Shown here in pieces: positions 1 through 29,577 of a stretch of DNA of 55,619 nucleotides (position 1 is its first letter; every line of letters begins with the position of its first letter). Below the pieces are notes generated by a model. It was not told where the DNA came from and did not search any database. It saw nothing but the letters and a program-made list of their open reading frames with translations. Where the stretch lies: assembly GCA_964632315.1 (NCBI GenBank), contig CAZWEM010000025.1:1-55619 (forward strand), given 5' to 3'. The translations under genes and the position numbers were made by a program. This DNA is from an uncultured archaeon (GTDB lineage: Archaea; Asgardarchaeota; Lokiarchaeia; Sigyniarchaeales; SOKP01).

Positions 1-1759
1 AAGATCCAATAATAACCGTCTTCATCTCGTCTTGCGCCATCTCCCGTATAGTAATGCCCCGGATATCGATTTAGATAGGTTGATTTGAACCGCTCCGTGT
101 CACCCCAGACATCTCTTAGCATTCCTGGCCATGGATGCACTCAATTTTCTTACTGAAAACTCATTTGTGCCATTGCAAAATATCCCCCCACATTCTCTTC
201 TTCGATTACATCACCTTCTAAATCGAATATAACGGGTTTTATTCCCAGGAATGGTAAGCAGCAGGATCCCGGCTTTGTTGGAGTCGCCGTTGCGATTGGA
301 GTCATAATAAAGCCGCCCGTTTCTGTTAGCCAAATCTTTCTAAATGAACGATTTTTTTGCCAATAAGTATCGACAATGGGCGCTTTACCTTTTCCTATTT
401 TGTAAAAGTACCAAGTCCAGGCTTCGGGGTTTTTCCCGAATACGAATAAGTTTTTCGTATTTATCGGTTCCCCAACAGTGCCTAAGATTCGGATAGAGCT
501 AAGATCATGCTTATTAACTGGCTCTTCACCATAACGCATTAACGCTCTAATTGCAGTTGGAGCTGTATAAATTCCCATTTCAGGACGAATCATACTGAAA
601 TATTGAGTTACCTTGTGTCTTTCGACTATATCCCAAAAGCGGTCTACTTTTACCCCACTTGGAAGAGATTTCCAATTGAAATTACTTGTGACTGGGTATG
701 TAGGCACGCCTTCGTACATCAAGGTCGTAGCTCCATTCGCAAGAGGTCCATATACAATGTAGGAATGTCCGGTGATCCAGCCTATATTTCAGCTGGTATT
801 GGTGAAGTACCAATTCCATCTGCTGTACAATACCAGACATCGCCATCCTTGTAGTTAAAGACGACTTTATGGGTGTAGGACGTGTATAAGATGTATCCCG
901 CGGTGGTATGTTTGACCCCTTTTGGTTTTCCGGTGGTCCCGCTCGTATAGAGAATGAAGAGAGTATCTTCAGAGTCCATGTGCTCGGGTTCGCATTCCTC
1001 ACTCATTCCCTCAATGAAATCATGGTACCAGATGTCTTTATCAGTATGCGGTACGTCATTTCCACTATGCTTGACCACGATCACGTGTTCAATAGTGGGC
1101 ACGTCGTCGATGATTTGAACGACGTCAGCCATTTTCGGATAAAATTTCCCAGCACGTACCGTTTGATCGCTGGTGAACAGCAGTCGAGAGTCTGAATCTT
1201 CAATCCTGTCCTTGACGGCTTCTTTCGAGAATCCACCAAATACAATGGAGTGAATGACACCAATTCGGGCACACGCGAGCATGATAATGGCGAGTTCGGG
1301 AATCATTGGCAACCAGATGGTTACCCTATCACCTTTTTTCAAGCCCAGTTTTTTCATGCCGTTAGCAGCTTTAGAAACCTCTGCGAGTAGTTCCTTGTAA
1401 GTATATTTACGCACTTTACCAGGTTCATCAGCTTCCCAGATGAGAGCTGTATGGTCACCTTTTCCGTTTTTCACGTGTCGATCCAAGCAATTGTATGCTA
1501 CGTTGAGTTTACCGCCAACAAACCATTTTCCTGGAAACAGGTCGGTTTTTTCCCAGACTTTTTCGTAGGGCGTGAACCAATCGAGTGATTTCGCTTGTTC
1601 TCCCCAGAATCCTTCCATGTCTTCGATGGATTCCTTGTAAAGCTTTTGATATTCCTTGAACGACATTCCAGTTGCGGCGTAATCTGGGTTGAGGTCTCGT
1701 GGGTCGAACTTCCTTGTTTCGGTTAGGATGCTTTCCATTTTTGAGTCTTTTTCTGACAT
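1..1759 (-). CDS. acs: AMP-forming acetyl-CoA synthetase, split by six BHB introns; 3' end runs off the window. Exons: 1759-820, 787-692, 649-602, 571-463, 432-356, 325-165, 134-<1
   Basis: ORFs 782..1759 and 150..722 plus downstream sequence give ACS motifs [57 protein letters not shown] and [17 protein letters not shown] once six short inserts are removed. Exon lengths 940/96/48/109/77/161 keep the frame. Confidence 0.95.
135..164 (-). other. BHB intron 6 of acs (30 nt, contains in-frame TAA and TGA)
   Basis: GCAATG-GCAC-AA^A-TGAGTTTTC...GAAAATTGA-GTGC-AT^C-CATGGC: perfect GCAC/GTGC helix. Splicing gives AMAQPWPGML. Confidence 0.93.
326..355 (-). other. Relaxed BHB intron 5 of acs (30 nt, in frame, no stop)
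   Basis: TT-GGCA-AA^A-AAATC...GATTT-GGCT-AA^C-AG, with one A-G mismatch. Splicing restores DTYWQTETGG. Confidence 0.87.
433..462 (-). other. Relaxed BHB intron 4 of acs (30 nt, in frame, no stop)
   Basis: GGGGA-ACCG-AT^A-AATACGAA...TTCGTATT-CGGG-AA^A-AACCCC, with one A-G mismatch in the central helix. Splicing restores VGEPINPEAW. Confidence 0.87.
572..601 (-). other. BHB intron 3 of acs (30 nt, in frame, no stop)
   Basis: GTAA-CTCA-AT^A-TTTCAG...CTGAAA-TGGG-AA^T-TTAT. Splicing creates a TTT codon and restores KVTQFYTAPT. Confidence 0.92.
650..691 (-). other. BHB intron 2 of acs (42 nt, in frame, no stop)
   Basis: CTACAT-ACCC-AG^T-CAC...GTG-GGGT-AA^A-AGTAG. Splicing gives TYPEVDRFW, matching the spacing of typical YPDPDRFW. 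Confidence 0.87.
788..819 (-). other. BHB intron 1 of acs (32 nt, frameshifting)
   Basis: TTGTA-CAGC-AG^A-TGG...CCA-GCTG-AA^A-TATAG: perfect 4-bp helix CAGC/GCTG, two 3-nt bulges and flanking helices. Splicing gives GCA GAT ATA GGC TGG (ADIGW). Confidence 0.93.
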
Positions 1760-1834
1760 ATTTTCTCACATTTTTGTAATTACGTTAATTTTGATACATG
1801 TAGATATCGTGATTGAATAAATAGCTCAATCATT

Positions 1835-1901
1835 TTAAAGCTTGCTTCCCAGTCGCATCCCATTTAAGTTTTACGTTTTCGGGATGGATGGAAGGCTTTA
1901 A
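1835..1901 (-). other. Non-coding BHB-shaped hairpin upstream of acs (putative 46-nt excised piece 1843-1888)
   Basis: TTAAAGC-CTTC-CA^T-CCA...TGG-GAAG-CA^A-GCTTTAA. An alternative non-BHB fold is also possible. Confidence 0.5.
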
Positions 1902-27233: not shown

Positions 27234-27294
27234 TTTTAAAGAACATTTAAAAAGTTTAAATAAGATAAAAAAAATAACAAATAATAGAACTAAG

Positions 27295-29577
27295 TTAGGT
27301 TTTTTTATAGATAAATCGTTCCCAACTTTTTGTATTTGGCATTTCTACCGGCATATCTTTTCTCTTTCGAATCTCTAAAATGAGTTCCTCCTCCAAATTG
27401 CTTGGAACTTTTTCAAATCCAGAGAATTCATAACCAAAAAATGCCCTACCCTGAGTTGTACCTCTTATTTCATCTGCGATACCAATCAATTCTGCAGCAG
27501 GCAGTTCTCCCTGCACTCTTATATATTCTCCTTCTGGGATTACATTATTGACGCGTCCTCTATGTTTATTAATAATTGCTAACACGCCAGATTCAGTACC
27601 TTGAGGAGTTTTAACATCAATTTTCTGAATTGGTTCAAATAAGTGAGGTTTGGCATCCATCATTGCAAGGGAAAATGCTGAAAAACTCATGCTTGCAATT
27701 TGATTATATCCTGTATGTGCTGGGTCTTCATGAATCGTAAGATCAGTGAAAACTACTTTAAGTCCTGTAGCGGGCTCTTTTGCAAGGATTGCACCATCTA
27801 CAAAATCCCTGAACGCTGCGGAAAGATATGACTTAACTCTATCAAATCGTTGCAAACCTGATGTTCCATTTACTAATAAATTACCATTATATACATCCAC
27901 GATTCTTCTTGCTTCTTTGGCGTCCCATCCAGCTTCTTCACGTAAGATTTTAGCTCTCTCCTTTTCATTCATCAAATCGTGAATCCTCCCCGTTTCTATC
28001 ATTTTTTCTGTCTTTTCATCTAAAGGTTCTATGTGCATGAGCATTCGATTATGACTATTTGAGGATTTAGTGTAAAAGTCCTTGCTTGGTTTTGTAATTT
28101 TTTCTCGATACACTATAATCGGCTCACCGATATTAATTTTGACTTGATTGTTGATTCGCTTCGTTAAAATATCAATTTGGAGCGGGTCAATTCCAGAAAG
28201 GATATACTCTTTTGATTCTTTGTCTAATCGGAACTGTGCAGTTGGATCCGCTTGAAGCCATTTTCCTACTACACCTCCTAATTTAGCCAAATCATGAGGA
28301 TCTTGTGGTTTTATGCTTCTTGAAACGACAGCTTCACAAGCGTAACTAATTTTTTCGAATGAGGGTAATCTTGCTTGTTCTTCTTTGTCTTTTGGGACTT
28401 CATTAGCATTCATGAATGTTTCGCCTGATGGACAAATGAAACCATAGAGTGCAAATAAATTGCCTGCTGGAACTTTATCCATATCTAAGATATCAGTTAT
28501 TTCCATGACCCCTAATCTTTTAATTCTATTTGATGTTCTGTTACCAATGAGATAAATCGAATCAGTTTGGTGGAACGTTCCTGAAAAAACTCGCCCGATG
28601 AGAGTTGCTTGATAATTTCTCTTGGGGTCTAAAAAGATTTTGGTTATCATCCCATATAATGGTCCATCAGGATCACTTTTTACTAAGGCTTTTCCTAGTT
28701 CTGAGTTTAAATCTCCACCCCATAAATGTGGTATTCTATAACTCGCAGCTGAAATTGGATCTGGTAAATGATCCACGACCATTCTCAACATGGGTTCATC
28801 TAATGGTAAATTTTCTCTAAGCCATTGAATATTTCCTTCATTATATTTTTCAAAAACCGTGATGGGAGTGTAACCTTTTTCTTTTAAGATTTCATAGGTA
28901 CATCCCCATCCATGTTTTGCTGAACCGAAGGTGACACTATTCTGGGCAAAGTCTACACCCCAATCTGAACCTTCAGGGCGAACTTTCTTAATTAGATCAT
29001 TTACTTGCCTAGTAATTTCATCAATTTTTGCATAAGTTTGCTCGGGAGTTAATTTCAGTTCACTTATCAATCTATCAACCTTATTTATGAAAAGAACGGG
29101 TTTACAAAGTTCTTCTCCAACAGCTAACCTGATGTTCGTTTCTGTTTGAGTCATCACGCCTTCTAAAGCATCTACTAAGATCATTGCTCCATCACTGCCT
29201 CTCAGGGCACGAGAGACTTCCCCTGTAAATGAAATATGACCAGGTGTATCGTTTATTTGGAAGATGTATGGATCAGTATCCTCCGGAGTACGAGGGTCTC
29301 TAAATGAAAGTAATACTACGCTTGTAAAAATCGTAATGCCGCGTTCCTGCTCCTCGTCTTTCAGTAGAAAAAGGAGACCTTATTCTAAATCTGAATCTGT
29401 CATTTGGAGCTGTCCGGCATCTTCTTCTCTCATCAATCCGGCTCTACGCAAGAGATAATCTGAGGCAGTAGTTTTCCCATGATCGATATGAGCAACAATT
29501 GAAAAAATCCTTTTTTTGCTGTAATCGGTGCTTGCCACCATACGAGCGATGTCTTCAGGGTTCTTTACTTTTACCAT
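27295..29577 (-). CDS. fusA: Elongation factor 2 family GTPase (probably the divergent paralog), split by one BHB intron. Exons 29577-29389 and 29358-27295 (750 aa spliced)
   Basis: AHIDHGKTT in ORF 29380..29577, then EQERGIT, DTPGH and NKVD in the same frame after the stop-containing insert. Confidence 0.93.
29359..29388 (-). other. BHB intron in the EF-2 gene (30 nt, in-frame TAA)
   Basis: T-TCAG-AT^T-TAGAA...TTCTA-CTGA-AA^G-A: perfect TCAG/CTGA helix and intron hairpin, weak exon-side helix. Splicing gives QMTDSDDEEQERGIT. Confidence 0.92.

Follow-up and report, generated by a model that had tools for sequence, protein, structure and literature searches.

Short introns of a common stem-loop design in mRNA and tRNA genes of a Loki-type Asgard archaeon

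Introduction

Why are two conserved protein-coding genes of an archaeon interrupted by seven short inserts, five of which are exactly 30 nt long? The genes, acs and EF-2, lie on the minus strand (1–1759 and 27295–29577) of contig C25 (GenBank CAZWEM010000025.1), a stretch of 55,619 nt, here called the window, of the 4.45-Mb genome G000 of a Loki-type Asgard archaeon. An initial annotation, made from the sequence alone, took the inserts for introns and ascribed their lengths either to a size-constrained generating mechanism or to selection for preservation of the reading frame. Here, we argue that they belong to a single class of tRNA-type micro-introns, common to the mRNAs and tRNAs of one Promethearchaeota genus, spliced by EndA and RtcB, selected for shape and descended from a common pool; we give this reading as a whole a probability of roughly 0.6. 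The introns have a common structure, size and bias toward A in their bulges, their removal restores the genes exactly, and both stem and loop are under selection.

Results

Removal of the inserts restores acs and EF-2

The two genes and their introns are as follows (bulges 5′/3′; central helix as pairs formed of four).

1–1759, minus: acs (AMP-forming acetyl-CoA synthetase; Pfam ACAS_N and AMP-binding), six introns, reaching past the contig end
788–819, minus: acs intron 1, 32 nt, frameshifting, bulges AGA/AAA, helix 4/4 (alignment with intron-free orthologues)
650–691, minus: acs intron 2, 42 nt, in frame, bulges AGT/AAA (same alignment)
572–601, minus: acs intron 3, 30 nt, in frame, bulges ATA/AAT (same alignment)
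433–462, minus: acs intron 4, 30 nt, in frame, bulges ATA/AAA, helix 3/4, 8-bp stem
326–355, minus: acs intron 5, 30 nt, in frame here, bulges AAA/AAC, helix 3/4, within the YWQTE motif
135–164, minus: acs intron 6, 30 nt, in-frame stop, bulges AAA/ATC (alignment with intron-free orthologues)
27295–29577, minus: EF-2 gene, one of two paralogues (Pfam EF-G domains), one intron after codon 63
29359–29388, minus: EF-2 intron, 30 nt, in-frame stop, bulges ATT/AAG, helix 4/4

All seven are clean insertions when aligned with intron-free orthologues. Unspliced, acs and EF-2 run into stops at codons 326 and 66, respectively; spliced, they encode 521 aa (without a stop) and 750 aa, which match the proteins of the relative G018 at 86.4% and 80.4% with no gaps. 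Cuts after the second base of each 3-nt bulge restore the mature sequence and give gap-free orthologue matches. Introns were placed by pairing alone, and A at the start of a bulge was never used as a criterion. Placed in this way, they bear out the initial annotation of the window: five are 30 nt long, six have lengths that are multiples of three, six end in AA, all 14 bulges are as listed and start with A, and each 3′ end pairs with its own upstream exon (central helix 4/4 in five introns, 3/4 in those at 433–462 and 326–355). Several occur in other genomes. G019 has acs intron 1 at the same site and length but with another stem, and its acs intron 4 has a stem that is replaced yet paired (6/18 identical); acs intron 5 has copies in G003, G009, G017 and G019, three of them with an in-frame stop.

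Beyond the window, we compiled a catalogue of 40 independent sites, comprising the seven of the window, 14 from an insertion census, six further ones and 13 in other genomes. For the census, about 1,200 genes (228,000 conserved codons) of one relative, G018, were aligned to G000 with no motif or length rule; it covered about 2.3 of the 3.8 Mb of G018, and introns common to both genomes escape detection. Loci added after the census came from gene-targeted searches. In-frame, stop-free inserts of 21–24 nt with a weak stem or none were set aside as ordinary indels, as was a 30-nt Gly/Tyr/Arg repeat on contig C27, which leaves the mode the same if counted. An ab initio scan (dicodon coding model, no length or base prior) retrieved only 2 of 17 known introns and was abandoned. 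An apparent exception, a CGG/CGT bulge pair on C24, was a misplacement, the placement that restores a conserved Gly giving AAA/AAC, and six supposed introns in the EF-2 gene of L268 (177 extra bases) are one 30-nt intron and a gap of Ns.

Across the 40 sites, the central helix (exon −6 to −3 with intron −6 to −3) scores a mean of 3.55/4 at an intron's own site, against 1.74 at swapped sites. Both bulges start with A in only 10% (146/1406) of random placements that pass as bulge-helix-bulge (BHB) motifs. The intron-side stem is present at nearly all sites and the exon-side helix is mostly 0–2 bp, which makes these sites HBh′ type. G000 encodes two EndA-family (PF01974) subunits and RtcB. The EndA alpha subunit aligns best with structures 3p1z and 3ajv, and its L1 loop, Y/H/K triad and Arg/Trp pair are all present. 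These features strongly suggest that the introns are excised by EndA and the exons joined by RtcB. In splicing-endonuclease structures, the first bulge base is stacked in a pocket and is A, whereas human substrates have U or C (PMC12397907, PMC5829648). The first-bulge A bias seen here probably reflects the Arg/Trp stacking pocket of the enzyme; given the human substrates, A is a preference at most.

There is also evidence from RNA. A 285-nt contig, X1, from a marine-sediment metatranscriptome is without exactly positions 29359–29388, and the one possible placement of this deletion is the predicted intron. Over 276 bases, X1 and the window have 6 differences (a sister allele, about 98% identical), and the three displayed ones are synonymous. 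It fits splicing of EF-2 but is not proof, as it could stem from an intron-free strain. The RNA comparison covered EF-2; a further RNA run, X2, has no coverage at the junction. Another contig, X3, from an independent run, retains the EF-2 insert with zero differences, which, together with introns at identical sites in other genomes, rules out assembly error as their source. That they are genuine spliced introns we regard as very likely. We also observe that the RNA contig ends at an adapter at window position 29605; this point lies 28 nt upstream of the start codon of EF-2 and hints faintly at a transcript 5′ end.

A common stem-loop design

Although the intron bodies had seemed to share no evident sequence, this does not hold once they are aligned from the 3′ end. 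Across the 40 sites, T stands at −17 in 33 (p = 8e-11), C at −16 in 22 (p = 3e-8) and a purine at −20 in 31. When folded without regard to sequence, 29 of 40 have a terminal loop of five bases; in seven others a G-C pair closes the same loop. In the 29, the 3′ arm is 8–10 nt long (9 in 21), and longer introns put their surplus bases on the 5′ arm; acs intron 2, for example, has the usual 3′ arm and pentaloop with its surplus on the 5′ side. The loop rule R-N-N-T-M is obeyed at 24/40 sites, compared with 7.6% of background hairpins. The design can be written as A/U, a 9-bp stem with the loop R-N-N-U-(C/A), a 4-nt anti-exon and A-N, so that arm and loop geometry account for the typical length: 30 nt = 1+9+5+9+4+2.

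A design score trained on mRNA introns was then used to scan G000. The reversed-genome control gave 107 matches at a score of 17, 4 at 21 and 0 at 23; the genome itself gave 10 at ≥23, and 17 of 27 known sites were recovered. The scan turned up a 33-nt intron in gyrB (C6:101550–101582, minus) and a 30-nt intron in leuS (C41:26254–26283, minus), for a bacterial-type-looking leucyl-tRNA synthetase, both with junctions that are gap-free against homologues. Most low-scoring matches were false, leaving gaps against homologues; C2:29498–29528 and C32:1397–1427 (scores 24.4 and 21.2) stand as high-scoring candidates.

The same elements occur in tRNA genes. Removal of a 30-mer lets ARAGORN detect tRNA-Lys, -Arg, -Thr and -His, and since a score trained on mRNA introns finds these tRNA 30-mers, we treat the two sets as one class. 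The tRNA introns of G000 measure 21–33 nt, several exactly 30, with boundaries from a custom script that may err by 1–2 bases. Design-type tRNA introns of 30 nt are seen at C10:64316, C2:136623, C6:53347, C15:52277 and C26:16217; three lie in the T-loop, and the tRNA at C6:53347 seems to hold a second intron. A 58-nt GC-rich insert with a BHB motif (bulges ATT/ATA) is found at C26:55488–55545 (minus), in what appears to be the peptidyl-transferase region of 23S rRNA, and is absent from G018. The comparison with tRNA and rRNA introns suggested in the initial annotation is therefore positive for the 30-mers in tRNAs and negative for the rRNA intron and the 21–28 nt tRNA introns, which are without the design.

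Length, bulge bias and reading frame

In the motif-free census, lengths above 24 nt form one peak, at 28–32 nt, and the 14 census introns outside the window measure 28, 29 (four), 30 (four), 31 (four) and 32 nt. Over all 40 sites, 36 introns are 28–33 nt long, the others being 38, 39, 39 and 42. Each of the 14 distinct EF-2 intron copies measures 30 nt, although the search patterns would have admitted 27–33. Bulges start with A at 34/40 sites on the 5′ side and 38/40 on the 3′ side, 24/40 introns end in AA, and the first intron base is A or T at every site. Thus, in a larger catalogue of the kind initially proposed, the narrow length distribution and the bulge bias both persist, and a size constraint is borne out. 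Size and A rules are strong tendencies; that all bulges start with A is true of the window and, as a tendency, of the genome, but the A rule is not universal.

Multiples of three, seen in six of the seven window introns, are not the rule genome-wide: only 4 of the 14 census introns have such lengths, and just one is in frame and stop-free. Over the whole catalogue 23/40 are multiples of three, and 16 of these 23 in-frame introns contain stops, against 13.0 expected by shuffling. We are confident that the frame does not drive intron size, contrary to one of the two initial suggestions; the 30-nt mode is retained by selection on RNA shape.

Distribution and relatedness

G000 has at least 29 introns in 18 genes, with up to six in one gene; hosts include EF-2, TBP, DnaG, GyrB, LeuRS, a histone and a ubiquitin E2. 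They tend to fall together in one gene (4 pairs among 14, versus 0.12 expected; P = 3e-5), and 11 of the 14 census sites outside the window fall in the first quarter of the gene. Relatives hold introns of their own elsewhere in these genes: L212–L218 in EF-1-alpha, L004 in EF-2, L041/L045 in acs and L236–L239 in E2. EF-1-alpha alone has three separate sites among relatives.

Orthologous 30-mers turn over in sequence while keeping their fold: 20 of 72 stem pairs are doubly compensated and 3 of 72 broken. At acs4, acs5 and an E2 site, orthologous stems retain 6–12 of 18 bases and the flanks 43–54 of 60; between sites, stems share 5.1 of 18. With orthologous stems this dissimilar, unlike bodies say nothing against common descent, and the conclusion first drawn, which denied that the introns are copies of one mobile element, is unwarranted, the more so as all sites have a loop consensus in common. 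Selection on the loop is evident from the 14 distinct copies in EF-2, in which its positions 1 and 4 are invariant while 2 and 3 vary. Carriers of the EF-2 intron occupy about seven places on the tree and have synonymous codons 3–10 upstream in common (0.65 vs 0.41, kin not being independent). This pattern suggests lateral spread accompanied by co-conversion of a short tract. In EF-1-alpha, 5/5 carriers have A as the wobble base at −2 of the intron site, as do 5/30 intron-free alleles. Because 22% of swapped intron-site pairs already pair at ≥3/4, hopping is feasible.

The proposal that introns were generated from flanking sequence finds no support: four permutation tests for likeness to an intron's own flanks, direct or inverted, gave p = 0.37–0.96, with no trace of local duplication or template switching. 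Between sites there is a weak overall excess of similarity (14 pairs vs 3.9; Mantel r = 0.065, p = 0.04), and no near-identical introns at unrelated sites, as in Thermoproteales-type transposition, were found among the 40 sites. Traits of homing-endonuclease, group I or group II introns are likewise missing, with inserts of 28–42 nt only, no Rfam match in the window and no reverse transcriptase in the genome.

Other features of the window lie close by. A 68-nt direct repeat (1906–1973 and 3939–4006, 94% identical) just upstream of acs brackets two low-GC ORFs (2054–3241 and 3252–3884) and resembles an inserted or duplicated block. At 6922–8841 there is a CoA-transferase–GNAT fusion with the motif LGMHSHY, which is not head-to-head with acs.

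Discussion

We propose the following scheme. In the transcript, the intron would form a hairpin with 9 bp of stem and the loop R-N-N-U-(C/A), and the final 6 nt of the intron would supply four exon-pairing bases and the 3′ bulge. As the helix-bulge-helix site is built almost wholly from the intron, the coding exons need not pair. An (alpha-beta)2 splicing endonuclease would cleave after the second base of each bulge and RtcB would ligate the exons. Introns of the common pool may move to new sites where 3–4 exon bases pair and an A follows, then drift by compensatory change and pass between lineages by recombination. That the common design means descent from a common mobile pool is a proposition to which we would give even odds.

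Several observations weigh against the scheme. X1, differing at six bases, is a sister allele that an intron-free strain could have produced, and acs introns 2–5 are in frame and stop-free in the window. Most of the extra EF-2 copies were retrieved by patterns with fixed ends. We find no close donor-acceptor pair, the best between-site score being 26 against a null maximum of 25. The search of genome and viruses called for by the initial annotation yielded no donor: blastn-short against the genome itself and the loci gave a best non-orthologous match of E = 0.006 at 17 nt, and the exact EF-2 intron is not present in viral contigs. The genome has no reverse transcriptase, so that an RNA-to-DNA step is without a candidate, and one marginal LAGLIDADG match. 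Finally, the enzyme does not require the design, which the 58-nt 23S rRNA intron and the 21–28 nt tRNA introns do without.

Might the inserts not be introns at all? They could be marks of dead genes, faults of assembly or hairpins skipped by the ribosome, and indeed a second EF-2 paralogue and distant acs paralogues exist, the RNA evidence comes from a sister allele and not the same strain, and 30 nt is about the size of a ribosome footprint. We consider this very improbable, since the same inserts recur in independent genomes with compensatory changes, an independent contig retains the EF-2 insert unchanged, the spliced proteins are fully conserved, tRNAs cannot be bypassed, and an RNA contig lacks exactly the EF-2 insert. 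Selection for frame, whereby unspliced messages still yield protein and multiples of three are retained, would accommodate 6/7 window introns, 23/40 sites and the stop-free acs introns 2–5. It is even less probable and largely refuted: a single 30-nt mode explains the excess, as the census series from 28 to 32 nt indicates, in-frame introns have stops in 16/23 cases against 13.0 expected, acs intron 5 has stops in three genomes, and the same 30-mers are present in tRNAs, which have no frame. Archaeal histone dimers have a step of about 30 bp, and the size might be set in DNA by such a step or by an integrase akin to that of spacer acquisition. Little but the number speaks for this (a mode of 30, with 21, 42 and 51 also present), and we give it the least credence of all, as the RNA parts fully account for the length, lengths of 29, 31, 33, 38 and 39 are common, and surplus bases sit on one arm.

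A more serious alternative is convergence, in which introns have independent origins in captured or slipped DNA, with no common ancestor sequence, and survive only if they fit a ruler. A cofactor, or EndA itself, might measure 9 bp from the cut and read the loop, or only such a hairpin might fold fast enough ahead of the ribosome. Fixed loop positions 1 and 4 beside variable 2 and 3 in the EF-2 copies, a 3′ arm constant at 8–10 nt with surplus on the 5′ arm, and the lack of sibling intron pairs would all be expected, and a preprint reports little copying among Asgard tRNA introns (10.64898/2026.10.13.758758). However, selection on the loop is equally expected under common descent, stem, loop, anti-exon and two As would have to come together in a random insert within an essential motif, the trace of flank duplication is absent, and other EndA substrates of the genome are without the design. 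Convergence therefore seems to us unlikely, if the strongest of the rivals. Movement from a common pool is the reading we prefer to convergence under a ruler, though the present data do not separate the two.

The closest known system is the cbf5 pre-mRNA intron of Desulfurococcales and Sulfolobales, 16–44 nt long (Watanabe 2002; Yokobori 2009, PMC2738675). Like it, the present introns are short, interrupt conserved coding motifs at relaxed BHB sites with a cut, here predicted, between bulge bases 2 and 3, coexist with a hetero-oligomeric EndA and show patchy gain and loss. Unlike cbf5, with its one site in one gene, they number at least 29 in 18 genes of one genome, up to six per gene, and have a narrow 30-nt mode and a common stem-loop design; for cbf5, on the other hand, spliced cDNA has been demonstrated, whereas here the RNA is one sister-allele contig. 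A 2020 paper names cbf5 as the sole other archaeal mRNA example beside a Haloferax UTR intron (PMC7714728). The latter, the HVO_1309 5′-UTR BHB intron of Haloferax volcanii, is likewise an mRNA substrate of the archaeal splicing endonuclease, but a single case in an untranslated region, while the present introns are coding and in many genes. Our literature search, mostly outside subscription papers, met no report of many coding-sequence BHB introns, and in the literature found, archaeal mRNA splicing within coding sequence is confined to one gene, cbf5. In HAC1/XBP1 splicing, IRE1 cuts two separate stem-loops, without a BHB motif, in a regulated, single-gene system. The likeness there is a short mRNA intron removed by a protein endonuclease and a tRNA ligase (PMC4090602).

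The introns also resemble the tRNA introns of Thermoproteales and Asgard archaea, with BHB or HBh′ motifs, non-canonical positions and repeated gains. For the non-canonical tRNA introns of Thermoproteales, transposition has been proposed, according to a review (Fujishima 2010, reviewed in PMC4090602); those copies, as described there, are visibly alike in sequence, and ours are not. Asgard reports, in their accessible text, deal with tRNA introns only, inserts with a median of 22–23 nt for which no fixed stem-loop design is described (PMC11291895; bioRxiv 10.64898/2026.10.13.758758). In G000, the same 30-mers are found in mRNAs and in tRNAs.

Archaeal mRNA splicing, treated so far as a one-gene oddity, appears routine in an Asgard genus. 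Gene callers read intron-bearing genes as broken or truncated, so core-gene annotations of these genomes are wrong, and the fixed design offers a search rule for the introns responsible. The origin of BHB introns becomes testable, since a single genus offers copies both young and old, hosts among tRNAs as well as mRNAs, and alleles free of introns. More tentatively, and with rather less than an even chance of being right, we envisage an actively spreading, protein-free intron lineage with a dedicated ruler (9-bp stem and R-N-N-U-M loop) that invades conserved motifs of essential mRNAs and tRNAs alike. If so, dozens of core genes would depend on splicing, and a non-spliceosomal intron invasion would have occurred in archaeal relatives of eukaryotes.

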